DNA of 64,000 nucleotides from Escherichia coli (GTDB lineage Bacteria; Pseudomonadota; Gammaproteobacteria; Enterobacterales; Enterobacteriaceae). The position numbers and the translations under genes were made by a program. The notes below the pieces were generated by a model, which saw nothing but the letters and a program-made list of their open reading frames with translations, made no database searches and was not told the origin of the DNA. The stretch lies in assembly GCF_030384885.1 (NCBI RefSeq), contig NZ_CP128613.1, one strand, 5' to 3'. Positions 9,442-41,218 of this stretch are shown here, piece by piece (within the stretch, counting starts at the first letter, position 1; every line of letters starts with the position of its first letter).

Positions 9442-9822
9442 TTTAAACTCCTCAGGTATCCCTGCTAATATCGAAATGTGCATTAATGATAATTTCAGCC
9501 TGTTAATAAAATGACGAGATATCATTAAAGACAAATGCATAGCATAACTATAGCTGGGTTTACTTTGCCGAGTGCCACTTTTCAGCGTTCAAAAGGCCAT
9601 GGTAAATAAATATTTATCCTAAGATTAATTCTTATTCTGTAGTTCTTTACAATTATCTTCCAGGGAGGGATTATTTTTCATTATTGGTAAAAGACCGGAT
9701 AGTCTCGGCGTTTAAAATCAGCGAACATATAATTATTATTGTTTTATATCGTCGTAAATATGTCTTTCAGACATGTATCGTTTATTTTGTAACAAACAAT
9801 TCAAAAATATCATAGGTTATTT

Positions 9823-11430
9823 ATGAAAGCAATTCATAATCTGATTGGAAACAACTCCTTAAGCCATGAATATAAGCATTCAGATAAAGTTAACAATCAT
9901 CAACACCATGGCAAGGTTGATAAAAAACATCTTTCAAAGACAGTTGAAGTTAATATACTGGATAAATTTTCGCAAATAGGTAACAATGCAGGCCTGCATA
10001 TCATCTATTTCCTGCAATATGGTCACTGGAATGTAAATGACTATTTTCATCAGACGGTGAAAACATCGCTTTACAATAGTGAACCTTCTATAGATATCCA
10101 AGAATATAATAGTTTCGCCAACATGGATACTGACACGTTTATCTTTACAATTATACCAGACAATAACCATGTGTTAAAATTATCATCTCCCATAACCGTT
10201 ACGATTGAGCGTAGGGATGGTTATTATTTTATTAATTTCTCCGGAGATAAATCAGATATAATTTATAAAGTTGATGGGCTTTCTATCATATCCGAAAATT
10301 TCTTTACTCTTCTTAGCGGTAATTTTAAACCTGACTGGCGTTGGGATGTCTCTACTGAGAACCTCACTAAGGAAAAGTTTGATAACTATGTTAAATCTGT
10401 GTTCTCAGAAATAGATTTTTATAAACACTGTGGTGTGATTAACCCACAAAATATGAACACGGCTTATTTTGGCGATACAGATGGAAGAGTAGGCGCTATA
10501 CTTTATGCATTGCTCGTTTCAGGGCATATAGGCATCCGGGAAGAGGGGGGGAGTTTAATATGTGAATTATTAAATCACGAAAATATGGCTTCATCTGCAT
10601 ACGAAAAGAAAAAAATGGGAGAGCTCTACGCTTTATTAAATGCAAGAGACATGATCTTGAATGAGTTGCATAATCATGTTTTTTTAAAAGGCGATGCGAT
10701 TACTCCTTGTATTTTCCTTGGAGATCATACAGGCGACAGGTTTAGTACTATTTTTGGAGATCAATATATCCTTACTTTGCTAAATTCTATGCAAAATATG
10801 GAGGGTAATAAAGATAGTCGTATAAATAAAAATGTCGTCGTTCTGGCTGGAAATCATGAAATCAATTTTAATGGTAACTATAGTGCACGACTAGCAAATC
10901 ATAGACTCTCCGCCGGTGATACATATAACTTAATTAAAACGCTTGATGTTTGTAATTATGACCCAGAAAGGAAAGTTTTAACCAGTCATCACGGAATAAT
11001 AAGAAATGAAGAAAGTAAATGTTATTGTCTCGGTGCTTTGCAGGTTCCATTTAAACAGATGAAAAATCCTACTGATCCTGAGGAATTAGCTAATATATTT
11101 AATAAAAAACATAAAGAACATATGGATGATCCTCTATTCCATCTAATCCGAAGCAATATTATGAAACCCACTGCTTTATATACTGATTATTTTAATAACA
11201 CTACTGATTTCAGACCAGCACGTAATCATATCTTCATATGTGGAGAGAAACTCAAATGTGAAGACCCCAGCAAATACATTAGACAAAAATATGGCCATCA
11301 TGGGCTCGGGGTAGATCAGAATCAACAATTTGATAATGGTATTATGGGTCTAAATTCCCGGAAGGAAGTACGTGATAAAAATAATAAAATAATTTATTCA
11401 TCAGGGCTTAGTTGTTTTCAATCTCATTAA
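9823..11430 (+). CDS. yhiL: DUF4049-type protein, paralog of YhiJ (yhiL/yhiK position), intact 535 aa
   Basis: AT-rich ORF sharing motif blocks with the next ORF: YFGDTDGxVGA, FLGDxTGDRFS, VLAGNHE. Confidence 0.7.
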   Translation: MKAIHNLIGNNSLSHEYKHSDKVNNHQHHGKVDKKHLSKTVEVNILDKFSQIGNNAGLHIIYFLQYGHWNVNDYFHQTVKTSLYNSEPSIDIQEYNSFANMDTDTFIFTIIPDNNHVLKLSSPITVTIERRDGYYFINFSGDKSDIIYKVDGLSIISENFFTLLSGNFKPDWRWDVSTENLTKEKFDNYVKSVFSEIDFYKHCGVINPQNMNTAYFGDTDGRVGAILYALLVSGHIGIREEGGSLICELLNHENMASSAYEKKKMGELYALLNARDMILNELHNHVFLKGDAITPCIFLGDHTGDRFSTIFGDQYILTLLNSMQNMEGNKDSRINKNVVVLAGNHEINFNGNYSARLANHRLSAGDTYNLIKTLDVCNYDPERKVLTSHHGIIRNEESKCYCLGALQVPFKQMKNPTDPEELANIFNKKHKEHMDDPLFHLIRSNIMKPTALYTDYFNNTTDFRPARNHIFICGEKLKCEDPSKYIRQKYGHHGLGVDQNQQFDNGIMGLNSRKEVRDKNNKIIYSSGLSCFQSH

Positions 11431-11691
11431 AACTCCATGAATACTGTGGTATGTCTTATTAATCCTGAAAGTATTTCATAGGTTTTCTTAATCGATTGTA
11501 GAGGTATGTTCTGATAACGCCTCTACAATCTCTAGGGATTTTTTCTACTTTGAGATAAGAAATTTCATATTATGCCTTAAGGCTGAATGATTTGTGCAAA
11601 ATATAATTGTTTTTCCATCGAACATGAGGTGTATGTCATAAGATTAAATATTAACTACGTATTCCTCGCGGTGAATAGCATGAGGTAAAAA

Positions 11692-33791: not shown

Positions 33792-34165
33792 AGGCGGATC
33801 TTCCCGCTACTGGCGGTGTGGCGGGCGTCACCGTCGTGACGCTGATAACTAAAGCTCAGAATCTGGCGTTCTTCCTGCCAGCTAAGCGTGAGTGTGACGC
33901 GGTTATCCGGCAGCAATGGAGCCTGGAATTTGATGTTCTGAATGGAGTGAAAACGCCAACCGGGCGCGAGCAGGGCAAGCGCGTAACTCATCGCCCAGTC
34001 GATTTGTGCCACGCCGGGGAGTAATGGTTGTACGGCAAAATGACCGCGAAACCAGAACAGATCTGCCCTGAGATGCAAAACAATCTCAAGGTGATTCACT
34101 TGTGCCTGATGGCGCTCGATTTCATGGGGCTTCATGAAATAACTCCTGTAATTGCGCATAGACAC
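33782..34165 (-). CDS. hotdog-fold dehydratase (tentatively ApeI-like)
   Basis: 127 aa with FabZ-like GHFxxxPxxPGV-type motif (RGHFAVQPLLPGV). Confidence 0.65.
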   Translation of the reverse strand: MSMRNYRSYFMKPHEIERHQAQVNHLEIVLHLRADLFWFRGHFAVQPLLPGVAQIDWAMSYALALLAPGWRFHSIQNIKFQAPLLPDNRVTLTLSWQEERQILSFSYQRHDGDARHTASSGKIRLCR

Positions 34166-35483
34166 GCTTGTTCATACTGTTTACTGGCATTTCATCAATA
34201 ACGCGCCAGTAACGCGGAATAGCAACTGGCTCCAGCGTCGGGCGCAGTAATCGCCGCCAGGCCATTTCCTGGCTGTGCCCGCCGCCGTTTTGCCATTGCA
34301 GGCGAGCTTCGTCATCCAGCACCAGCAAAACGCCAATACTCTGACGCCCGCCGCGCGTAACGGGAACTGCCGCCGCCTCGTGAATACCGTCCAGCGCCAG
34401 CAGACGTTGTTCTACTTCCTGGAGTGAAATGCGTTTTTCTTCAATCTTAACGATGCGTCCGCGACGCCCCATCAGATGGAACTGGCCGTCTTCGCTAAAC
34501 TGCAAGATATCGTCGAGTAACAGGCCGCTATCTTCCTCCATCAGAGGTGAAAAGAGACGAAAGGCATCATCTTCGGCCTGGAACTGCATACCTGGAAAGG
34601 GCCGCCAGCGGCGTTGCTCTTGTTCGCGGTAACGCCAGGCGATGACGCCGGTTTCCGTGCTGCCGTAGATTTCATCAGGCCAGACGCGCAGCCAGCTCGC
34701 GGTGTGTTGTACGTCCTGCCACGGTAGTTCACCGCCAGCGGACAGAAGCACCTGAACGGGGGGCGGGGATAGCTGAGCATCCAGACGCTTCAAAAATGCC
34801 GGGCTGCTGATGAAGATATAGCGATGCTGATGACTCAACGCGGCAAACTGTTCGACATACCAGAGCATGGCGGCATGGAGCGGTAATCCCAGCGCCATGG
34901 GCAGGAAAACGCGAAAAGTCAGGCCGTACAAATGCTGCGGCAATACGGAACCGATGACACGACATCCGGCAAGACGTGCGCCTAATCGTTCAGCCAGCAG
35001 TTCTGCTTCACGGTCCAACAAACGAACAGGTTTAATCACCCGCTTCGGCTGCCCTGTGGAACCAGAGGTAAACAGCTCGATATAAGCGTCTGGCGCTATA
35101 GCGGCAAAGGTGAATGATTGTGTCGCGACTTGTGGGGAGCTTGCTACCAACTGCAATGAACCTTGGCAGTTAAGTTCGCTGTCGCTAAGCACACCATCGA
35201 ACAGTTCACGTTGCTCGTTAAGCTGGATGACGCGGTTATGCCCCGGAAGCACCGGTGTTTTTCCGGCGTGTAGCGTGGCGAGCAGGGCAACGATAAACAG
35301 ATAGCAGTCCTCAAAGCACAGCGCCCAGCGTTCACCTGGTTGTTGCTGTAAACGGCAGATAAGTTGCGAGACATCGTGACGCAAATCGCCCAGCGTCCAG
35401 GTGCTTTCGTCCAGCCACGCAATGGGCGTGTCATCAGAGCGTGGCGCAGTCAGCCAGCGTGCAAGCGGTAAGGTCTGCTTCAT
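34122..35483 (-). CDS. AMP-dependent synthetase/ligase (tentatively ApeH-like)
   Basis: AMP-binding motif LFTSGSTGQPKRV; start set at ATG 35483, overlapping the upstream stop (ATGA); ORF-track start 35522 is an alternative. Confidence 0.75.
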   Translation of the reverse strand: MKQTLPLARWLTAPRSDDTPIAWLDESTWTLGDLRHDVSQLICRLQQQPGERWALCFEDCYLFIVALLATLHAGKTPVLPGHNRVIQLNEQRELFDGVLSDSELNCQGSLQLVASSPQVATQSFTFAAIAPDAYIELFTSGSTGQPKRVIKPVRLLDREAELLAERLGARLAGCRVIGSVLPQHLYGLTFRVFLPMALGLPLHAAMLWYVEQFAALSHQHRYIFISSPAFLKRLDAQLSPPPVQVLLSAGGELPWQDVQHTASWLRVWPDEIYGSTETGVIAWRYREQEQRRWRPFPGMQFQAEDDAFRLFSPLMEEDSGLLLDDILQFSEDGQFHLMGRRGRIVKIEEKRISLQEVEQRLLALDGIHEAAAVPVTRGGRQSIGVLLVLDDEARLQWQNGGGHSQEMAWRRLLRPTLEPVAIPRYWRVIDEMPVNSMNKRVYAQLQELFHEAP

Positions 35484-36061
35484 GAGCGATCTCTTTTCAT
35501 CACCTGACGGCGCACCAGCCATTCACCAGCCATTAACGTCCCCATCAACAAATAAGCAATCATGCCGTTCCAGGCAGTCCATAACGACATATCGCCATGC
35601 AGCGCGGTAAAGAGGGCAATTCCGCCGTTGATGATGAAAAAGCCGCACCAGATTTGCGTGACGTGGCGGGTATAGCGCACGCCCTTTTCCGGGAGGTCTG
35701 GCTCCTGCAAACGCGCCAGCCGCTCAACAATTGGCATTGCCGACCACAGCGAACCGCCAAAAACCGCCAGCATTACCGCGTTAACCACTACCGGGTAAAA
35801 CAGCAGTAGCTGGTGCGTTTTCAACAGAAAGCTGGCAACACACAAGGCGATACCCACAACAGCGACGATTTGTGTGACGGCTTGTAGCGGCCCGGCCTGG
35901 CAACGAGTCTGGCGCAGGCGCAATAAAAGCAGCAGCGCCATCAGCGGCAACAGCCAGTGCAGGCCGTTATGTGCCAAACCAAGCCAAATCACAAACGGCC
36001 AGGCGAGCAGCAATAATCCAGTCAGCAGTTTAATAATCGGTAGCGAGCGAATGCCCGACAT
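35480..36061 (-). CDS. integral membrane protein of unknown function (tentatively ApeG-like)
   Basis: 193 aa with about 5 predicted TM helices; in-operon position. Confidence 0.6.
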   Translation of the reverse strand: MSGIRSLPIIKLLTGLLLLAWPFVIWLGLAHNGLHWLLPLMALLLLLRLRQTRCQAGPLQAVTQIVAVVGIALCVASFLLKTHQLLLFYPVVVNAVMLAVFGGSLWSAMPIVERLARLQEPDLPEKGVRYTRHVTQIWCGFFIINGGIALFTALHGDMSLWTAWNGMIAYLLMGTLMAGEWLVRRQVMKRDRS

Positions 36062-36065
36062 CAGA

Positions 36066-36317
36066 TCAGGCTTCTTGTAGCAGGCGTTCTACGGCCTCTA
36101 CGACATCCCGGACTGTACGCACTGCTTTAAACTCTTCCGGCTTGATTTTCTTACCGGTTTTCTTTTGCAGATGCACAATCATGTCAACGGCGTCGATGCT
36201 GTCCAGTTCCAGATCTTCGTACAGGCGCGCTTCAGGTTTGATGTCCTGCGGTTCGATTTCAAACAGCTTAACCAGCAGAGCTGAGACTTCCTGATAGACG
36301 GTTTGTTGTTCTGTCAT
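36066..36317 (-). CDS. acyl carrier protein
   Basis: 83 aa, acidic, with phosphopantetheine attachment motif DLELDSIDAVD. Confidence 0.85.
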   Translation of the reverse strand: MTEQQTVYQEVSALLVKLFEIEPQDIKPEARLYEDLELDSIDAVDMIVHLQKKTGKKIKPEEFKAVRTVRDVVEAVERLLQEA

Positions 36318-36586: not shown

Positions 36587-37382
36587 TATTTATTCCTGAG
36601 AGAGGTAAACAACCTTGTTGTAATTGAAGCAAAAGATGCCGGTTTAACTGCCTTGCTGCTAGCGCCGGTTCTTGTGAAGTTGCATCGTAAAATTTATTGA
36701 TTTCTACCCGCCCACGGACTTCAACCGTAAAAAGTGGCCTGGCAGGTGGAACGTCATACCATTTACTTTGTTTATCCAGCAGATGCTCGCTACAGCCGAT
36801 CGTCACGATGCGTAAATCGCTGGCGCAGCGCACGGCAATATTCGCCGCACCGCGCTGTAACGTCATTTTTTCACCAGGCTTCGTCCGCGTGCCTTCGGGG
36901 AAAATCAAGATAGTGTCGCCCTGTGCCAGTCGCTGTTGGCAACGGGGTAAGAGAGTTTCAGCTTCGCTGTTGATTAAATAATCTGCCGCCCGCACGACGC
37001 CGCCAAGAAAAGGATTTTTTAACAGCGCGCTTTTTACCAGGCAGTCAGTTTCTGGCATGACTGATGCCAGTAGTACGTAATCGATAAGCGTGGGATGATT
37101 AGCTACGACGAGGCAACCGCGTTCCTGACGTAAAATTTCAGCCCCATCAATACGATAATCCAGCACGCCAAGCCCTTTTGCGACTGTTAAAAACAGACGA
37201 AAACTGGCGGCAATGCTGCGACGCGCCAAACGACGGCGGCGGGAAGTGTTCCACACCAAAACTAACAGTACGTTAAACCACACCACAGAGAGTAGTAGTC
37301 CGCCGAGGCCAAACAGGGCAAAACACAACCCGGTCATAACCAGTCGCCATGTCCATTCCAGGCGTGACATCAGCTTACTCAT
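36561..37382 (-). CDS. PlsC-family lysophospholipid acyltransferase (tentatively ApeD-like)
   Basis: 273 aa; N-terminal TM helix, NHPTLID (HxxxxD) and FPEGTR motifs. Confidence 0.75.
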   Translation of the reverse strand: MSKLMSRLEWTWRLVMTGLCFALFGLGGLLLSVVWFNVLLVLVWNTSRRRRLARRSIAASFRLFLTVAKGLGVLDYRIDGAEILRQERGCLVVANHPTLIDYVLLASVMPETDCLVKSALLKNPFLGGVVRAADYLINSEAETLLPRCQQRLAQGDTILIFPEGTRTKPGEKMTLQRGAANIAVRCASDLRIVTIGCSEHLLDKQSKWYDVPPARPLFTVEVRGRVEINKFYDATSQEPALAARQLNRHLLLQLQQGCLPLSGINNASALSGN

Positions 37383-38125
37383 CTACGGCTCCAGCGCCAC
37401 TGTACGCGCTCACCAGGAAGTGAAAAAGCATCTGAATTTTGTAAATAGTGCTGTAAAAACAACATGCTTTGCGGCAGTGTTGTTTCATTGCCCGCAATGG
37501 CTGGCTGTGTTTCACATTGCCACTCATCGCCAGCTTCAATCACCAGCGCAACAGCATATGGCCAGGTCGGCATTTCTGCTGGGAGCTGCGGATGATAGAA
37601 CTCAGGTAGAAAGCCATCAAAATCGACCATCAACACACGCTGGTATCCCGCTTGTAGCAGGCTAAGCACTTCACTCAAACCTTGCTGGAAAGTGTCGCGA
37701 CCAGCCGAAAGCGATGACGAAACGATCGGCTGTTTGGCCGCAATGGTCAGGTTACCCACGGAAGAGTTGTGTACTGAAAGTGCAAAGTCGGTGGGGGAAA
37801 GCGCCTGTTCAGTTGCCAGTGCATGAACAATGCGGTAATTGCGCTCCAGTTCGCCATGACGACTGGTATACAAAACGGCGTCTGGCTGATGGCGGCGTAG
37901 CATTGCCAGGCCGCATTCAACAGCCAGTTTGCTGCCTGAACTGAGGCGGCGGGCGGTCATCATTGGCAGTTCACTTAATTTTGCCAACGGCGCGGCAGGG
38001 TCAATCGCCCACGGCTGGCGCGACCATGCTTGCCATTGCTGCGCTTCGCTAAGTCCAGGCGCCAGTGCCTGCCAGTCGGTAATATTTAATGTAAATTTCA
38101 TCAACGCGCGCCCGCGGTAAACCAA
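37379..38125 (-). CDS. ketosynthase-like protein without the recognisable catalytic triad; chain-length-factor-like partner (tentatively ApeC-like)
   Basis: 248 aa, start overlaps downstream-gene stop; no Cys/His KS motifs found by eye; alternative start at ATG 38101. Confidence 0.55.
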   Translation of the reverse strand: MVYRGRALMKFTLNITDWQALAPGLSEAQQWQAWSRQPWAIDPAAPLAKLSELPMMTARRLSSGSKLAVECGLAMLRRHQPDAVLYTSRHGELERNYRIVHALATEQALSPTDFALSVHNSSVGNLTIAAKQPIVSSSLSAGRDTFQQGLSEVLSLLQAGYQRVLMVDFDGFLPEFYHPQLPAEMPTWPYAVALVIEAGDEWQCETQPAIAGNETTLPQSMLFLQHYLQNSDAFSLPGERVQWRWSRR

Positions 38126-38141
38126 AATTATTAAGTGACGA

Positions 38142-39209
38142 TTATTTCTTTTGGCATATCAAAAGAGTATGCCCAACGCCTAAATTATCGTGGCGCTCTG
38201 CTACCTGAAATCCTGCTTTATTCAGATAGTCGTAAAATTTCTCTGCACTATAGAAACGGCTGTTACCGTTTGCCATGCAGGTGAAATAAAGTGAGGACGC
38301 GTTCAGGCTAAATGATGCTGCTTCAAACCGCTGCGCATCCCAGAACAACTCCATGATGCAAACTTTTGCGCCAGGCTTCATTACGCTGGCGATTTTGCTG
38401 AGTATGCTAATTATTTGTTCGGGTGAAAAACAGTCTAAAAATTGGCTCATCCACCAGATATCAGCCTCGCCCGGTAATGGGGCATCGCTTAGCATATCCA
38501 CCGCATGGAAATCTATGCGATCAGAAAAACCTGCATTCGCGATATTTTCTTTCGCTAGTACGATTTGTTGTGGCAGATCTAATAACGTCACGGCGATGTT
38601 TTCATTGTATTTGCAGCAACGCAAAGCCCACTTACCCGTATTGCCGCCTACATCGTACAATGTTGTGGGGTTGTTGGCGAATACATAAGGCAGTGCGGCG
38701 TTAAATGCGCCATCTGAATAGTAATGATCAAACGCAAACCAGCTTTCACGAGCGGCATCTGGTAATTGTGAAAGTGCGGGATATATCGTCGACCAGTCGC
38801 CAAATACTTTTAACCCGGACGGTTTTCCTTCATTGAGTGAATCGGCGAGGAAGAAGAGCCCCTGATAGCAGACATCCTGGGTGAAATCCATATTCACGCG
38901 AGTCATAGTGTCATGCAGGAGGTAATGACCGATTTTCGCCAGGTAATACATTCCCTCTTTACAGGTAATAATTCGCCCGCTTAAGCCCATATCTAACAGA
39001 ACGCTGGCCGCATATTCGTTGATATGGCTATGTTCGGTGATATCAGCCAGCGTTGCGCCATGTTTGCCTTGCCGATCCAGATATGAAAGTACACCCGCAT
39101 TACGTAGGCAGAGAGCTGTTTGAAAAAGCATGGGGGCAAAGGCAATGCGTTGAGCTTCGGTAATCGCATCCAGTGCGCTAAGAGAATCCTGTTCGTACAT
39201 GTTGGGCAC
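38142..39209 (-). CDS. class I SAM-dependent (O-)methyltransferase (tentatively ApeB-like)
   Basis: 355 aa; glycine-rich SAM-binding motif VGGNTGKWA. Confidence 0.75.
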   Translation of the reverse strand: MPNMYEQDSLSALDAITEAQRIAFAPMLFQTALCLRNAGVLSYLDRQGKHGATLADITEHSHINEYAASVLLDMGLSGRIITCKEGMYYLAKIGHYLLHDTMTRVNMDFTQDVCYQGLFFLADSLNEGKPSGLKVFGDWSTIYPALSQLPDAARESWFAFDHYYSDGAFNAALPYVFANNPTTLYDVGGNTGKWALRCCKYNENIAVTLLDLPQQIVLAKENIANAGFSDRIDFHAVDMLSDAPLPGEADIWWMSQFLDCFSPEQIISILSKIASVMKPGAKVCIMELFWDAQRFEAASFSLNASSLYFTCMANGNSRFYSAEKFYDYLNKAGFQVAERHDNLGVGHTLLICQKK

Positions 39210-39268
39210 AACCTGTTAAGAGGGAATTAAATTATTATCGGACCGAAGCGGCCCGACTTTAGGGGAAA

Positions 39269-39658
39269 TTACAAATCTGCGCCAGCCGACAAATTCAGTT
39301 GAATATCTTTGTCGAGATTGCGGACCCAGCGATTATAGTTTTTATGAATTTGTCCGCCTGATGCTTGCAGGTTCTGACTATTTTCATAATTGATATCGTA
39401 GCTGGATGCCGTGTAGTTAATGCGAATTTCGGCTGAATGATCGCGTGACTGTTGACGTGCTTTAATTACGCCTTGTCCGGCTTCGGACATAATCCATTTG
39501 CGTTCAACGCCAGCTTTCAGAATCGCTTTTTTCACTTGTTCCGGGGTATGACCAGCGCTGACGGTTGAGTGAACCTGATCAATTGGCGCAGTACGCGCGC
39601 AACCCGCTAAAGCACCCACAACAGCAATAGCCGCAAACCATTTCATGTAATGTCTCAT
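39269..39658 (-). CDS. small lipoprotein, first gene of the cluster transcription unit
   Basis: 129 aa; signal peptide with lipobox LAGC; lower GC than the downstream genes. Confidence 0.55.
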   Translation of the reverse strand: MRHYMKWFAAIAVVGALAGCARTAPIDQVHSTVSAGHTPEQVKKAILKAGVERKWIMSEAGQGVIKARQQSRDHSAEIRINYTASSYDINYENSQNLQASGGQIHKNYNRWVRNLDKDIQLNLSAGADL

Positions 39659-39988
39659 TAGAATCCCATTAAAGTATTGTTTTTACGAGTAAAGCAAGAT
39701 TTAACTGTAATTGCTGGCATCACTATTCTTTATTTAGCGAAAAAATTACTTGTGAGATAAGTCAGTAAGTGCACATCAGAGTAAAAATTTCTGAAATGAC
39801 TAAATTACTGCCAGCGGGGACCAACTATAAGTGAGTGAGAAAAATGAGGCAATAAAAATAACAGATTGTTATCAGTGCATTCTTTGAGAGGGATTTAATC
39901 GCTATTCGGCGTTTATATATATTTGACTTAAGGAATGGTTTTTATAAATTAATTGTCTGAATAATGTTTCTTCATTTCCTCAAATCAA
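39659..39988 (-). promoter_or_regulatory. AT-rich putative promoter/regulatory region of the biosynthetic cluster
   Basis: About 330 bp non-coding, very AT-rich (TTTATATATATTTGACTTAAGG), between the yhhT terminator and the first cluster gene. Confidence 0.4.
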
Positions 39989-40017
39989 ATGGCCACTGTT
40001 AGATAAACGGTGGCCAT
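39989..40017 (-). terminator. candidate yhhT terminator hairpin
   Basis: ATGGCCAC-n13-GTGGCCAT stem 20 bp past the yhhT stop, followed on the minus strand by TTGATTTGAGG. Confidence 0.5.
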
Positions 40018-40037
40018 TGCCTGCTCAGGAGGTGCTA

Positions 40038-41087
40038 TTAACCTGGTAACCGACTTTTCGGTCTGCCCGGCCCCAGTAAGATCGCCAGTTTGCTACCGCC
40101 TTTGGTGGTTTCCATCCAGATTTTACACACGCTGGTTAATGGTACCGAAAGTAGCATTCCAACCGGGCCGAGCAGCCATCCCCAAATCAACAATGAAAGA
40201 AATACCACCATGGTGGACATCCCCAGGCGATGGCCCATCATCCGCGGTTCTAAAATATTGCCGATGACCATATGGACAACTAAAAACAATGCGCCGACCA
40301 GAATACATTCGTAAACGCCATTAAACAGCAGCACCTGAATCATTGGCGGTACGGCGGAAATTACCGCGCCGATATTGGGGACGTAGTTAAGCAAAAACGC
40401 CAGTACCGCCCACATCAGCGCAAACTGTACACCCATAAGTTCCAGCCCCAGCCAGACGATAATGCCTGTCCATAAACTTAGCAGTGTCTTCAATGCAAGA
40501 TAGTGCGAAACACCTTTTAAGGCGCGGTGTAGTCCGGCGATGTGAATCTGTGGATTATTCAACGCAAAACGCATTTTGTAAGGGACGTGGCGCACTTCAA
40601 ACAGCATGAAAACTACGGTCATCACCAGCAAAAGCACGCTCGCCATTGCCCCGGAAAGCCCGGTCATTAGCGCCGTGGTGAAGGTAACCACTTTTTCCGA
40701 GTCCATCCGCTGCAGCATTCGCTCCGGCGACATATGCAAATTAAGAAAAGGCAACATCTCCTGCAATTTAAAAAGCTTGCGCGTCAGCTCCTTATTAAAC
40801 TTCGGCAGCATAGAGATAAATTCGTTAAACGAAGCTGCCAGTACACCGACCAGTGCGGTAAGTGCGATCAGCATCACCACCACCACAATCGTAATTGCAA
40901 CGGGGCGTTGTACTCCGCGACGAATAAACCAGGTGACGAGCGGGTTGAGGACGATGGCAAAAAACAGCGCCAGTAACAGTTGCACAATGATATCTGCCGC
41001 TGCGTGAATGCCCGCGAGGATTACTACCAGCGAGGCCAGTTTAAGCAGAATGTGCATGCCCGTTTTATCGGGTTGAGGGGTTTCCAT
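40038..41087 (-). CDS. yhhT: AI-2E family (PerM-like) membrane transporter
   Basis: ATG at 41087 gives 349 aa (METPQPDKTGMHILL...); polytopic. Confidence 0.8.
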   Translation of the reverse strand: METPQPDKTGMHILLKLASLVVILAGIHAAADIIVQLLLALFFAIVLNPLVTWFIRRGVQRPVAITIVVVVMLIALTALVGVLAASFNEFISMLPKFNKELTRKLFKLQEMLPFLNLHMSPERMLQRMDSEKVVTFTTALMTGLSGAMASVLLLVMTVVFMLFEVRHVPYKMRFALNNPQIHIAGLHRALKGVSHYLALKTLLSLWTGIIVWLGLELMGVQFALMWAVLAFLLNYVPNIGAVISAVPPMIQVLLFNGVYECILVGALFLVVHMVIGNILEPRMMGHRLGMSTMVVFLSLLIWGWLLGPVGMLLSVPLTSVCKIWMETTKGGSKLAILLGPGRPKSRLPG

Positions 41088-41218
41088 TGGGGCTTCCTTG
41101 TGACTTTTTGTATTAAGTGTAGCGGGAGTCACGCCAGCAATATTCTGATTCTTACTGCTGATTTTCACGTCAGCACGTGGTAAAAATGAAACACTGTTGT
41201 AAAAATGTGGTGATCCTC

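Follow-up and report, generated by a model that had tools for sequence, protein, structure and literature searches.

Aryl-polyene clusters are among the commonest biosynthetic gene clusters of Gram-negative bacteria, and they affect oxidative-stress tolerance and biofilm formation. Their architecture is that of a type-II-like polyketide synthase/fatty-acid synthase set, with a ketosynthase, a chain-length factor, two acyl carrier proteins and an adenylating enzyme, together with ApeI- and ApeP-type dehydratases, a ketoreductase, export genes of the LolA-like, MMPL and DUF3261 types, and two acyltransferases. Work by Cimermancic et al. in 2014 is said to be connected with the aryl-polyene cluster of strain CFT073, APE_Ec, and De Lay and Cronan in 2006 reportedly dealt with O-island 138 and the phosphopantetheinyl transferase AcpT.

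Functional and regulatory experiments have all been carried out on the CFT073 cluster (apeA-apeR, c1204-c1186; Johnston et al. 2021, PMC8253772), and not on the locus described here. Production of the yellow aryl-polyene lipid has been shown only for CFT073 (PMC8253772) and, by analogy, may be expected of the O-island-138-type locus; a CFT073 strain deleted for apeA still makes the pigment but no longer forms the mature lipid (PMC8253772). The cluster contains no regulator gene and its expression is driven by the native promoter(s) (bioRxiv 10.64898/2026.01.21.700819). Conditional expression, which an earlier note on the present DNA had proposed, agrees with the literature: in CFT073 a temperature of 37 °C induces the cluster, beginning at its 5′ end (PMC12890032), and in EDL933 RpoS represses the genes of O-island 138, which are 2-6 fold higher in an rpoS mutant (PMC2907692).

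Here we analyse the 5′ end of an aryl-polyene-type locus in a 64,000-nucleotide stretch of Escherichia coli DNA (hereafter the window), which is a 100% match to strain 2013C-4282. Sequence comparison assigns positions 38142-40037 to the known aryl-polyene-type lipid cluster apeA-apeR, of which they comprise the promoter region and the two leading genes. In our judgement this interval is quite probably the regulatory front end of a syntenic cluster, one whose low G+C is an old family trait rather than the mark of a recent hybrid, and which would be governed by a single conditional promoter and a hairpin. The cluster itself is already known; the gain is incremental and consists of minor new detail; the feature is ordinary overall, and the understanding of the aryl-polyene system is unchanged.

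The locus and its chromosomal context

RefSeq annotates 18 ape-type genes between yhhT and acpT in the identical record. They stand in the canonical apeA-apeR order, and each has its colinear counterpart in the CFT073 cluster (amino-acid identity 66-99%), which gives the locus an aryl-polyene architecture. The layout on the minus strand is the predicted yhhT terminator, the spacer, apeA, a hairpin, apeB, and then a gapless series of apeC-apeR and acpT (Table 1).

The yhhT and acpT flanks, judged by their coordinates and by comparison with the K-12 junction, identify the locus as O-island 138, the AcpT-associated cluster. In O157:H7 EDL933 this island is Z4849-Z4866, with Z4850 an O-methyltransferase and Z4852 an acyltransferase; it is the same locus, with strain-level differences only (~1-3%), and in a blast search of E. 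coli genomes those of O157 match positions 38142-40037 at 97.6%. The locus type is carried by 569 of 5,426 complete E. coli genomes. In K-12, yhhT is followed by 54 bp and then by acpT; homology stops at the yhhT stop codon and the last ~30 nt of apeR are retained, K-12 being a deletion derivative of the ape locus.

Table 1. Positions of genes, predicted elements and junctions at the ape locus, in window coordinates
Feature	Position	Strand	Description
yhhT	40038-41087		upstream flank of ape cluster
yhhT-apeA intergenic spacer	39659..40037	(-)	379 bp, G+C 0.338; predicted control region of cluster
Intrinsic terminator of yhhT, predicted	39980..40018	(-)	stem AAUGGCCAC...GUGGCCAUU, tail UGAUUUG
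Sigma-70 promoter, predicted	39824..39852	(-)	TTGCCT-17 nt-TATAGT; -35 at 39847-39852, -10 at 39824-39829; predicted start ~39817
Leader, predicted	39659..39817	(-)	~160 nt, AT-rich; semi-conserved block TCGCTAAATAAAG at 39728-39740; ribosome-binding site GGGA at 39664-39667
apeA	39269..39658	(-)	129-aa lipoprotein, signal peptide with lipobox LAGC; G+C 0.462, GC3 0.415
G+C-rich stem-loop right after apeA stop codon	39237..39257	(-)	GUCGGGCCG-CUU-CGGUCCGAU
apeB	38142..39200	(-)	352-aa SAM-dependent O-methyltransferase; G+C ~0.463, GC3 0.476
Recombination junction inside apeB (~codon 70) relative to CFT073-type	38949..38994	(-)	from sliding-window identity and mismatch map; change-point 38,993
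apeF/apeG junction	36061..36066	(-)	compositional boundary of cluster; GC3 0.480 upstream, 0.659 downstream
apeR	24633-25862		last ketosynthase gene of cluster
acpT	24044-24631		one base past apeR; directly downstream

Base composition along the operon

The earlier note had judged by eye that the 5′ genes and their upstream region are more AT-rich than the ketosynthase, reductase and exporter genes, and the computed values bear this out, beyond chance. G+C is 0.438 in positions 38142-40037 and 0.526 in the whole window; it is 0.462 in apeA and ~0.464 in apeB, compared with 0.602 in apeO, 0.590 in apeJ, 0.580 in apeM, 0.561 in apeQ and 0.550 in apeR. GC3 is likewise ~0.41 and ~0.48 in the first two genes and 0.58-0.71 in apeG-apeR. 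By G+C the interval falls in the lowest 7% of same-size windows within the 64 kb, and those that are equally low or lower, barring overlaps with the interval itself, all start at ~7.9-13 kb.

The contrast is therefore real, but its edge does not lie at the end of apeB, where the note had drawn it. A maximum-likelihood search along the operon puts the GC3 change-point at 36,011 (~36.0 kb), the junction between apeF and apeG, with a likelihood-ratio statistic of 120 against at most 16.4 in 200 permutations, whereas apeB/apeC has no significant GC3 step (statistic 4.5). It follows that the AT-shifted block comprises apeA-apeF plus the spacer, ~36.06-40.04 kb.

Relative to the 45 non-ape genes of the window, the GC3 z-scores of apeA and apeB are -2.15 and -1.44. 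Codon use was scored as a leave-one-out typicality against the window's core genes, in place of the codon adaptation index of Sharp and Li. On this scale apeB has z = -2.95 and apeD z = -2.86. The 5′ block is distinct in codon use as well.

The yhhT-apeA spacer

The upstream region extends 379 bp to the apeA start, and not roughly 330 bp as first estimated. The start is taken as the ATG at 39658, which is conserved in orthologues together with its ribosome-binding site; the RefSeq start lies 12 nt later. Among the 25 intergenic regions of at least 50 bp in the window (mean G+C 0.426, sd 0.063) the spacer is fourth lowest, and the core panM-livK spacer equals it at 0.336. The spacer is no more AT-rich than the promoter region of core livK.

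AT-rich yhhT-apeA spacers of 280-570 bp (G+C 0.30-0.42) are present in 25 other loci, and that of locus L040 is 711 bp long. By blastn, E. coli genomes beyond the 569 with this locus type contain no copy of the spacer. An Rfam scan of 39100-40150 returned only a chance snoRNA match (E = 0.53), and the spacer holds no credible small ORF; a 21-codon frame ending in TAATG at the apeA start was rejected, being kept only in the near-identical Escherichia sp. E1V33.

At the distal end of the spacer, the fold of 39975-40035 has a free energy of -21.4 kcal/mol (z = -3.07; 1 of 200 shuffles as good), and in the alignment other genera have a different hairpin and T-run at the same place after yhhT. The predicted terminator would insulate the ape genes from yhhT transcription.

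The putative sigma-70 promoter was located by a coding-strand consensus scan of the spacer and agrees with the consensus hexamers at 9 of 12 positions, with a spacing inside the accepted 16-18 nt. The scan gave three sites where 2.4 were expected, so that a match alone is weak, and support for the promoter comes from conservation. The site aligns with TTGATA/TTGATG-17-TATACT of Citrobacter and K. michiganensis amid otherwise unalignable sequence, and in Escherichia, four Citrobacter loci and K. michiganensis it scores highest of all candidates, at a distance of 165-210 nt upstream from the ATG of apeA. This conservation is limited to the Escherichia/Citrobacter/Klebsiella group, and other genera have other candidate sites. 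In the predicted leader, the TCGCTAAATAAAG block and the ribosome-binding site are the sole stretches conserved in the alignment. A riboswitch-like leader structure was considered and discarded, the fold being no better than shuffles (z = -0.37).

The first two genes and the hairpin between them

ApeA matches no Pfam family. ApeB matches PF00891 at 6.6e-18 and contains the dimerisation domain PF21212; against the NCBIfam model for FlxJ-family methyltransferases it scores 474 bits over its full length, below the 560-bit cut-off, and by these scores it is related to the FlxJ (flexirubin-type) family without being an equivalog.

The stem-loop after apeA folds with a 9-bp stem. A consensus fold of 27 loci has 8 pairs, 5 of them with compensatory double changes. 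Over 1.31 Mb the covariance model finds a single match in each locus, and every time it lies after apeA (E = 2e-8 to 5e-3), most of these matches being the sequences used to build it; it also matches the CFT073-type locus, which is absent from the model (E = 2e-5), and finds no further hairpin within the window. Loci without apeB have unrelated but equally strong hairpins after apeA. In E. coli the hairpin is followed by the tail AUAAUAAUUUAAUU, without the U-tract of an intrinsic terminator, and a terminator scan did not report the site; in Atlantibacter, Edwardsiella, Dickeya and Pectobacterium a T-run comes after it. The element is probably an attenuator, a partial terminator or a stabiliser of the mRNA 3′ end, any of which would separate apeA from apeB-apeR.

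Intercistronic stem-loops are known to set differing expression within an operon, for example the REP hairpin of malE-malF and the mRNA processing of papB-papA. The ape locus resembles these systems in its stable hairpin just past the first cistron, which has been kept through compensatory changes and has a U-tract in some genera but not in others. The ape hairpin is not a REP element, because it occurs once per locus and at this position only.

Expression and the question of nucleoid-protein control

Under the reading we favour, transcription of the whole operon would start at the single conditional promoter in the spacer, the hairpin would determine how much apeA mRNA there is relative to mRNA for the downstream enzymes, and regulation would weaken with distance from the promoter. 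In CFT073 the log2 fold change between 37 and 23 °C (37/23) declines along the cluster, being 2.1 at apeC and 0.3 at apeR (rho = -0.93 with gene position), a gradient that belongs to a CFT073-type cluster whose upstream region is non-homologous to this spacer. Low G+C was tried as a predictor of this thermal induction and rejected, since gene position accounts for the induction, leaving a partial correlation of 0.12 with GC3. A literature search on the ape genes of O-island 138 and CFT073 and on nucleoid regulators found no promoter mapping and no H-NS dataset that covers the ape genes; only papers on RpoS, MmpL, temperature and TosR were relevant.

A second reading, which can coexist with the first and which we hold to be possible rather than probable, is that selection has favoured the AT shift because it offers a platform to which H-NS or its relatives among the nucleoid proteins (StpA, Hha, Lrp, IHF) bind. 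Such a platform would keep a costly, regulator-less operon silent until 37 °C or stress released it. Over its 379 bp the spacer has an AT content of 66%, with 100-bp peaks of 70-72%, and many genera have an AT-rich spacer that is conserved in length and composition but not in sequence. However, AT content reaches 60% or more only within ~39,600-40,050, and the coding DNA of apeA and apeB is only ~54% AT, so that the platform would be limited to ~400 bp; the equally AT-rich panM-livK spacer also speaks against a special role, as do the Enterobacter loci, which pass from yhhT to apeC in only 128-153 bp at ~50% G+C.

The sequence TCGCTAAATA at 39731-39740 shares 8 of its 10 positions with the H-NS consensus TCGATAAATT, and near-matches to the consensus are raised relative to the window, but composition alone explains the excess (15 observed against 10.9 +/- 3.4; p ~0.16). 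The spacer has no site for the IHF consensus WATCARNNNNTTR. In favour of nucleoid control, aryl-polyene production in Frischella perrara is IHF-dependent (PMC10104596). In published H-NS binding tables for strains SE11, SE15 and K-12, yhhT and acpT are marked as not bound; these tables cover shared genes only, the ape genes being absent (PMC4720273). Binding of H-NS to the spacer would be plausible.

With respect to expression, nucleoid control accords with the thermo-induction of the sister CFT073 cluster from its 5′ end, and with its induction by TosR, as cited in PMC8253772. TosR belongs to the PapB family of regulators, and the prediction for it is that it binds AT-rich DNA and acts as an antagonist of H-NS and Lrp (PMC5956150). 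Array signals of O-island 138 in EDL933 grown in LB are nevertheless mid-range and not silent (log2 7-10 for several genes). The ape locus shares with H-NS-silenced AT-rich islands an AT-rich promoter, an accessory distribution (569/5,426) and conditional expression, but its genes are far milder in composition (G+C 0.46 versus 0.34-0.38 for the DUF4049 genes of the window; codon z -1 to -3 versus -5.8), and the locus is syntenic across the family rather than foreign.

Divergence from the CFT073-type cluster

The CFT073 cluster has the same 18 genes in the same order, and it shares both the 5′-low GC3 gradient and the hairpin after apeA. Nucleotide identity to the present locus is 92-98% in the 3′ part of apeB through apeF and in apeJ-apeR; apeA is only 66% identical, the segment from the 3′ part of apeG through apeH and apeI is 57-76% identical, and the upstream region cannot be aligned with this spacer. 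The CFT073 cluster also occupies another chromosomal site, in a pathogenicity island adjoining cdiBA and without acpT. At the recombination junction inside apeB, divergence changes from 35.6% upstream to 3.6% downstream, with no change in G+C. No close relative of the divergent CFT073-type segments, and hence no donor, was found among 80 loci. Of the two leading genes, 38 loci have both, 21 have apeA alone, 1 has apeB alone and 15 have neither. With this junction and the gain and loss of apeA and apeB among genera, the 5′ end of the cluster has evolutionary dynamics of its own.

A more speculative and, in our estimate, doubtful extension is that 38,994-40,037, which runs from the spacer through apeA and the hairpin to about codon 70 of apeB, is an exchangeable regulatory cassette. 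On this view the family-wide AT shift of the promoter-proximal half would persist because selection favours control through nucleoid proteins (H-NS, Lrp, IHF, and PapB-family proteins such as TosR), and the hairpin would set the ratio of ApeA to the enzymes. If this were true, the most widespread family of Gram-negative biosynthetic clusters, which is regulator-less, would be rewired by the swap, gain and loss of an AT-rich module.

The low-G+C front end across Enterobacterales

The earlier note took the G+C contrast to suggest a mosaic origin. In its strongest form, a promoter, apeA and apeB from a lower-G+C donor would recently have been fused to a higher-G+C biosynthetic core, which would account for the distinct composition and codon use of the 5′ block, the sharp junction relative to the CFT073-type cluster, and the variation of apeA and apeB by genus. 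We consider this improbable and, as regards G+C as evidence, already largely refuted. The G+C step sits at apeF/apeG, away from the recombination junction, and G+C is equal on either side of that junction and in both allele types.

The same gradient is present in every host examined. GC3 of apeA and apeB is below that of apeG-apeR in 57 of 57 comparable Enterobacterales loci (mean difference 0.137), and that of apeC-apeF is lower in 73 of 74, although the 57-74 loci are phylogenetically related and the counts overstate independence. Compared with the host's own yhhT and acpT flanks, apeA and apeB are 0.135 lower in 36 of 36 loci. A rise from apeF to apeG occurs in nearly all other loci as well, and the gradient persists in hosts of contrasting composition (GC3 30/39 versus 56 in Tolumonas; 62/66 versus 81 in Edwardsiella).

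Gene order and divergence point in the same direction. The order yhhT-spacer-apeA...apeR-acpT is syntenic from Escherichia to Atlantibacter, and the yhhT-acpT context is common to Citrobacter, K. michiganensis, Lelliottia, Leclercia, Kosakonia, Atlantibacter and others; relatives thus have the cluster in the same place, and K-12 has a deletion scar there, which is not the pattern of a foreign insertion. A non-syntenic island context belongs to the CFT073-type and not to this E. coli type. In comparison with Citrobacter, amino-acid identity stays level from one end of the cluster to the other, ApeA (80-86%) and ApeB (85-87%) matching their orthologues as well as the other proteins do (71-95%; YhhT 88-91%). 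Given the family-wide 5′-low pattern, the synteny and the even divergence, the G+C contrast is not evidence of a recent mosaic, and the note's suggestion, as drawn from G+C, is not supported. Least probable of all is that nothing specific underlies the pattern beyond ordinary gene-to-gene scatter and the usual AT-richness of promoters, for although the spacer is no outlier among the intergenic regions of the window (z = -1.4) and the GC3 z-score of apeB is small, the operon step is highly significant and recurs in all compared loci, as random scatter would not.

We therefore return to the regulatory front end of an old, syntenic cluster. Low G+C would have marked the apeA-apeF half of the cluster family for a long time, in all the hosts examined, rather than being the trace of a recent hybrid in E. 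coli, and it is strongest in apeA and apeB, accessory genes that are prone to gain and loss. Candidate explanations for its upkeep are a faster turnover of the front end, or selection that favours AT-rich DNA as a target of global regulators. An implication is that the G+C contrast at the ape locus should not be taken as recent chimerism. The analysis also supplies concrete testable elements, namely the predicted promoter, the conserved hairpin after apeA, and the exact junctions of the 5′ module swapped between the two E. coli types.

Finally, we note a pair of DUF4049 genes at 9.8-13.3 kb of the window, with G+C of 0.34-0.38 and codon typicality z = -5.8, which by composition alone resembles an H-NS-silenced island.

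Identity and distribution of the locus

The AT-rich segment at 38142-40037 is real, yet as the front end of a known cluster it is an ordinary feature; what is new are small details, namely a conserved predicted promoter, a hairpin after apeA, exact recombination junctions and an AT shift that is family-wide. The window matches the E. coli 2013C-4282 chromosome at 100%, and the segment is the front of a putative 18-gene operon on the minus strand, with yhhT upstream and acpT, then nikA, downstream. RefSeq annotates, in order, a hypothetical protein (the lipoprotein ApeA), a methyltransferase, a chain-length factor, a lysophospholipid acyltransferase, two acyl carrier proteins, a COG4648-like protein, an AMP-binding enzyme, the ApeI dehydratase, a GT2/acyltransferase, a thioesterase, a LolA-like protein, an MMPL transporter, a DUF3261 protein, a ketosynthase, the ApeP dehydratase, FabG2 and another ketosynthase. 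This is the aryl-polyene (APE) gene order apeA-apeR, as in E. coli CFT073 (PMC8253772). Because it is sited between yhhT and acpT, the cluster is O-island 138 of O157:H7, in which Z4850 is the methyltransferase and Z4852 the acyltransferase (PMC2907692); the segment matches O157 genomes at 97.6%.

Of the 5,426 complete E. coli genomes compared, 569 carry this locus type. In K-12, yhhT and acpT are only 54 bp apart. There the homology to the window breaks off with the yhhT stop codon, and at the acpT end ~30 nt from the 3′ terminus of apeR survive; K-12 therefore represents a deletion. In a canine E. coli isolate (NZ_CM176495.1, match H11), an IS1B splits the match to window positions 37300-41200 in two.

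Of the two proteins encoded in the segment, ApeB contains an O-methyltransferase domain (PF00891) and is near the FlxJ methyltransferase family, with a score below the cut-off. A lipoprotein signal (LAGC) marks ApeA, which matched no Pfam family. In the AlphaFold model (pLDDT 85.7, pTM 0.75), ApeA is a small alpha+beta domain: after the signal helix come a further helix, five to six strands forming a sheet, and a helix at the C-terminus. Structural comparison places KA1 membrane-binding domains and the BamC lipoprotein's N-terminal domain closest to the model, at a low level of similarity (TM 0.48-0.52, E about 1e-3, 11% identity).

Composition of the cluster

The G+C content of the segment is 0.438 versus 0.526 for the window, which places it among the lowest 7% of same-size windows; overlaps aside, equally low or lower windows start only at ~7.9-13 kb. 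The 379-bp yhhT-apeA spacer has a G+C content of 0.338, the fourth lowest among the window's 25 intergenic regions and equal to that of the core panM-livK spacer. Values for apeA and apeB are 0.462 and 0.464, compared with 0.55-0.60 in apeJ, apeM, apeO, apeQ and apeR, and G+C at third codon positions (GC3) is 0.41 and 0.48 versus 0.58-0.71 for apeG-apeR (z-scores of -2.15 for apeA and -1.44 for apeB against the window's 45 other genes).

The earlier note had described the promoter-proximal genes and the upstream region as AT-rich, which is right in direction but understated in extent. In a change-point analysis of third positions, the best single boundary along the operon is at 36,011, the apeF/apeG junction, where GC3 rises from 0.480 to 0.659 (likelihood-ratio statistic 120, versus at most 16.4 in 200 permutations); the same analysis gave no significant step at apeB/apeC. 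The AT-shifted block is thus the spacer plus apeA-apeF, and the shift is moderate in size. In codon typicality, apeB and apeD reach z-scores of -2.95 and -2.86, against -5.8 in the DUF4049 genes described below.

A block between yhiM and yhiY (9442-13503) deviates far more in composition than the ape segment does. It contains two DUF4049 genes flanked by spacers of 0.31-0.32 G+C, and is a more typical candidate than the ape segment for H-NS-bound foreign DNA.

Features of the window
Feature	Coordinates	Strand	Basis or properties
yhhT terminator, strong hairpin with U-rich tail	39980-40018	minus	fold z = -3.07
Block 1, predicted sigma-70-like promoter TTGCCT-17-TATAGT	39852-39824	minus	alignment, scan
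Block 2, TCGCTAAATAAAG	39728-39740	minus	cross-genus alignment
Block 3, ribosome-binding site and apeA ATG	ATG at 39658	minus	cross-genus alignment
9-bp G+C-rich hairpin	39237-39257	minus	directly 3' of apeA stop codon
DUF4049 gene	9823-11430		G+C 0.34, GC3 0.28, codon-typicality z -5.8
DUF4049 gene	11692-13314		G+C 0.38, GC3 0.34, codon-typicality z -5.8

Age of the G+C contrast

The contrast had been taken to suggest a mosaic origin, a reading that comparison with the family does not support. Ape proteins were placed by tblastn in 80 related loci, one genome per species, from Enterobacterales and Tolumonas. GC3 is lower in apeA+apeB than in apeG-apeR in all 57 loci compared (mean difference 0.137), and lower in apeC-apeF in 73 of 74 (mean 0.075), the window having the largest value (0.164). 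Relative to the core flanks yhhT and acpT of the same locus, apeA+apeB are 0.135 lower (36/36 loci), apeC-apeF 0.050 lower and apeG-apeR 0.030 higher. The gradient is common to low- and high-G+C hosts (Tolumonas, 30/39 versus 56; Edwardsiella, 62/66 versus 81). The order yhhT, AT-rich spacer, apeA to apeR, acpT is shared with Escherichia sp. E1V33, Citrobacter, Superficieibacter, K. michiganensis, Lelliottia, Leclercia, Kosakonia, Atlantibacter and others, and identity to Citrobacter is uniform along the cluster (ApeA 80-86%, ApeB 85-87%, other proteins 71-95%; flanking YhhT 88-91% and AcpT about 82%). It follows that the contrast is an old property of the family and no mark of recent fusion in E. 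coli.

Exchange at the 5′ end does occur, and is evident from the CFT073-type locus, a second E. coli APE cluster that adjoins cdiBA in a pathogenicity island in ~255 genomes. Most genes of the two types are 92-98% identical; the exceptions are apeA (66%), apeH (68%) and apeI (72%), and the upstream regions are unalignable. Divergence falls from 35.6% to 3.6% at a sharp junction at 38,949-38,994, inside apeB near codon 70, and further sharp junctions are found at ~35,644 in apeG and at 33,847 at the apeI/apeJ boundary. The interval 33847-35644 (the 3′ part of apeG, apeH and apeI) is a second replaced segment, with 57-76% identity versus ~96% on either side; apeH differs in G+C (0.560 in the window, 0.478 in the CFT073 type), and ApeH is the least conserved protein in every comparison. 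No close sequence to the divergent CFT073-type segments was found among the 80 loci.

Both apeA and apeB occur in 38 of the 75 loci whose upstream sequence was long enough to judge; 21 have apeA only, 1 apeB only and 15 neither. The comparison loci of Enterobacter hormaechei (L023), E. mori (L026) and Enterobacter genomosp. O (L038) are without both genes and without the AT-rich spacer, yhhT and apeC being 128-153 bp apart at ~50% G+C; transcription of these clusters may differ, possibly occurring jointly with yhhT. The front-end swap and the gain and loss of apeA and apeB took place without a change in G+C, and the two apeA alleles of E. coli are alike AT-rich (G+C 0.47 and 0.42). In these comparisons the 5′ end acts as an exchangeable module with a behaviour of its own.

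The control region

Between genera, the upstream sequences are nearly unalignable except for three conserved blocks (see table). Other genera have a terminator of their own at the same place after yhhT. The predicted promoter aligns with TTGATA-17-TATACT of Citrobacter and K. michiganensis, and a site of this type, 165-210 nt 5′ of the apeA ATG, is the best sigma-70-like site in Escherichia, Citrobacter and K. michiganensis. RefSeq starts apeA at 39646 (MKWF...); however, at least 14 other loci share an ATG that lies 12 nt further 5′ and has a GGGAGTT-like ribosome-binding site in front of it. Because both elements are conserved in orthologues, the start is more likely at 39658, with the product MRHYMKWF....

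The predicted ~160-nt leader showed no unusual structure on folding and no Rfam match. It contains a 21-codon ORF (39658-39723, minus strand) with a GTG start, MMPAITVKSCFTRKNNTLMGF; its stop codon and the apeA start overlap in TAATG. Escherichia sp. E1V33 retains the ORF, the differences being mostly synonymous. The region is unalignable in other genera and the ORF lacks a clear ribosome-binding site; it is probably spurious.

In the hairpin after apeA, 8 pairs are retained across 27 loci, and 5 of these show compensatory double changes. A covariance model run over 1.31 Mb found one hairpin per locus, always 3′ of apeA, and matched the CFT073-type locus, which was absent from the model. Loci without apeB have unrelated, equally strong hairpins at the same position. 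A T-run follows the hairpin in some genera; because E. coli has none, the predicted role is attenuation or stabilisation and not termination. The downstream genes overlap or are at most 11 nt apart, and acpT begins one base after apeR, a spacing that fits one long operon.

Possible nucleoid-protein binding and regulation

AT content reaches 60% or more only within ~39,600-40,050, where local peaks stand at 70-72%; apeA and apeB themselves are about 54% AT in their coding sequence. There are 15 near-matches to the H-NS consensus, against an average of 6.6 in stretches of the same length across the window, but no clear excess over composition-matched shuffles (10.9 +/- 3.4). A scan of the window found no IHF consensus site in the ape spacer. 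Across the window, the IHF consensus WATCARNNNNTTR occurs at 14 sites versus 3.9 +/- 1.8 expected, a number reached in 0 of 100 shuffles, and 4 of the 14 are in the AT-rich DUF4049 block (11320-13087). The literature searched gave no nucleoid-protein binding data for the ape locus; in Frischella perrara, aryl-polyene production requires IHF (PMC10104596). Control of the ape cluster by H-NS would be a reasonable hypothesis.

In a stationary-phase rpoS mutant of EDL933, O-island 138 genes are 2-6 fold up (PMC2907692), and sub-inhibitory ciprofloxacin raises z4861 (apeM) 2.3-2.8 fold (PMC6471949). The CFT073 sister cluster responds modestly to chronic peroxide (bioRxiv 10.64898/2026.01.21.700819) and to TosR overproduction (as cited in PMC8253772), and is expressed more highly at 37 C than at 23 C (PMC12890032 supplement). 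The log2 fold changes between these temperatures are 1.5-2.1 for apeA-apeF, 1.1-1.5 for apeG-apeI, 0.5-0.8 for apeJ-apeP and 0.3 for apeQ-apeR (PMC12890032). Induction weakens along the operon (rho = -0.93 against gene position), a trend to which GC3 contributes nothing after correction for position. In the sister cluster, regulation therefore enters at the 5′ end. Together with the IHF dependence in Frischella perrara, these results, most of which concern a non-homologous upstream region, are compatible with a conditional promoter subject to the influence of global DNA-binding proteins.

In one CFT073-type locus (L003, 19514-20028), apeA and the cdiB/cdiA contact-dependent inhibition operon face each other, with a spacer of 515 bp and 0.37 G+C between them. 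The cdiA remnant c1205 is induced at 37 C about as strongly as apeA (log2 1.54 versus 1.46; PMC12890032 supplement). We suggest that the cdi/apeA spacer of the CFT073 type is a shared, thermoregulated, divergent control region.
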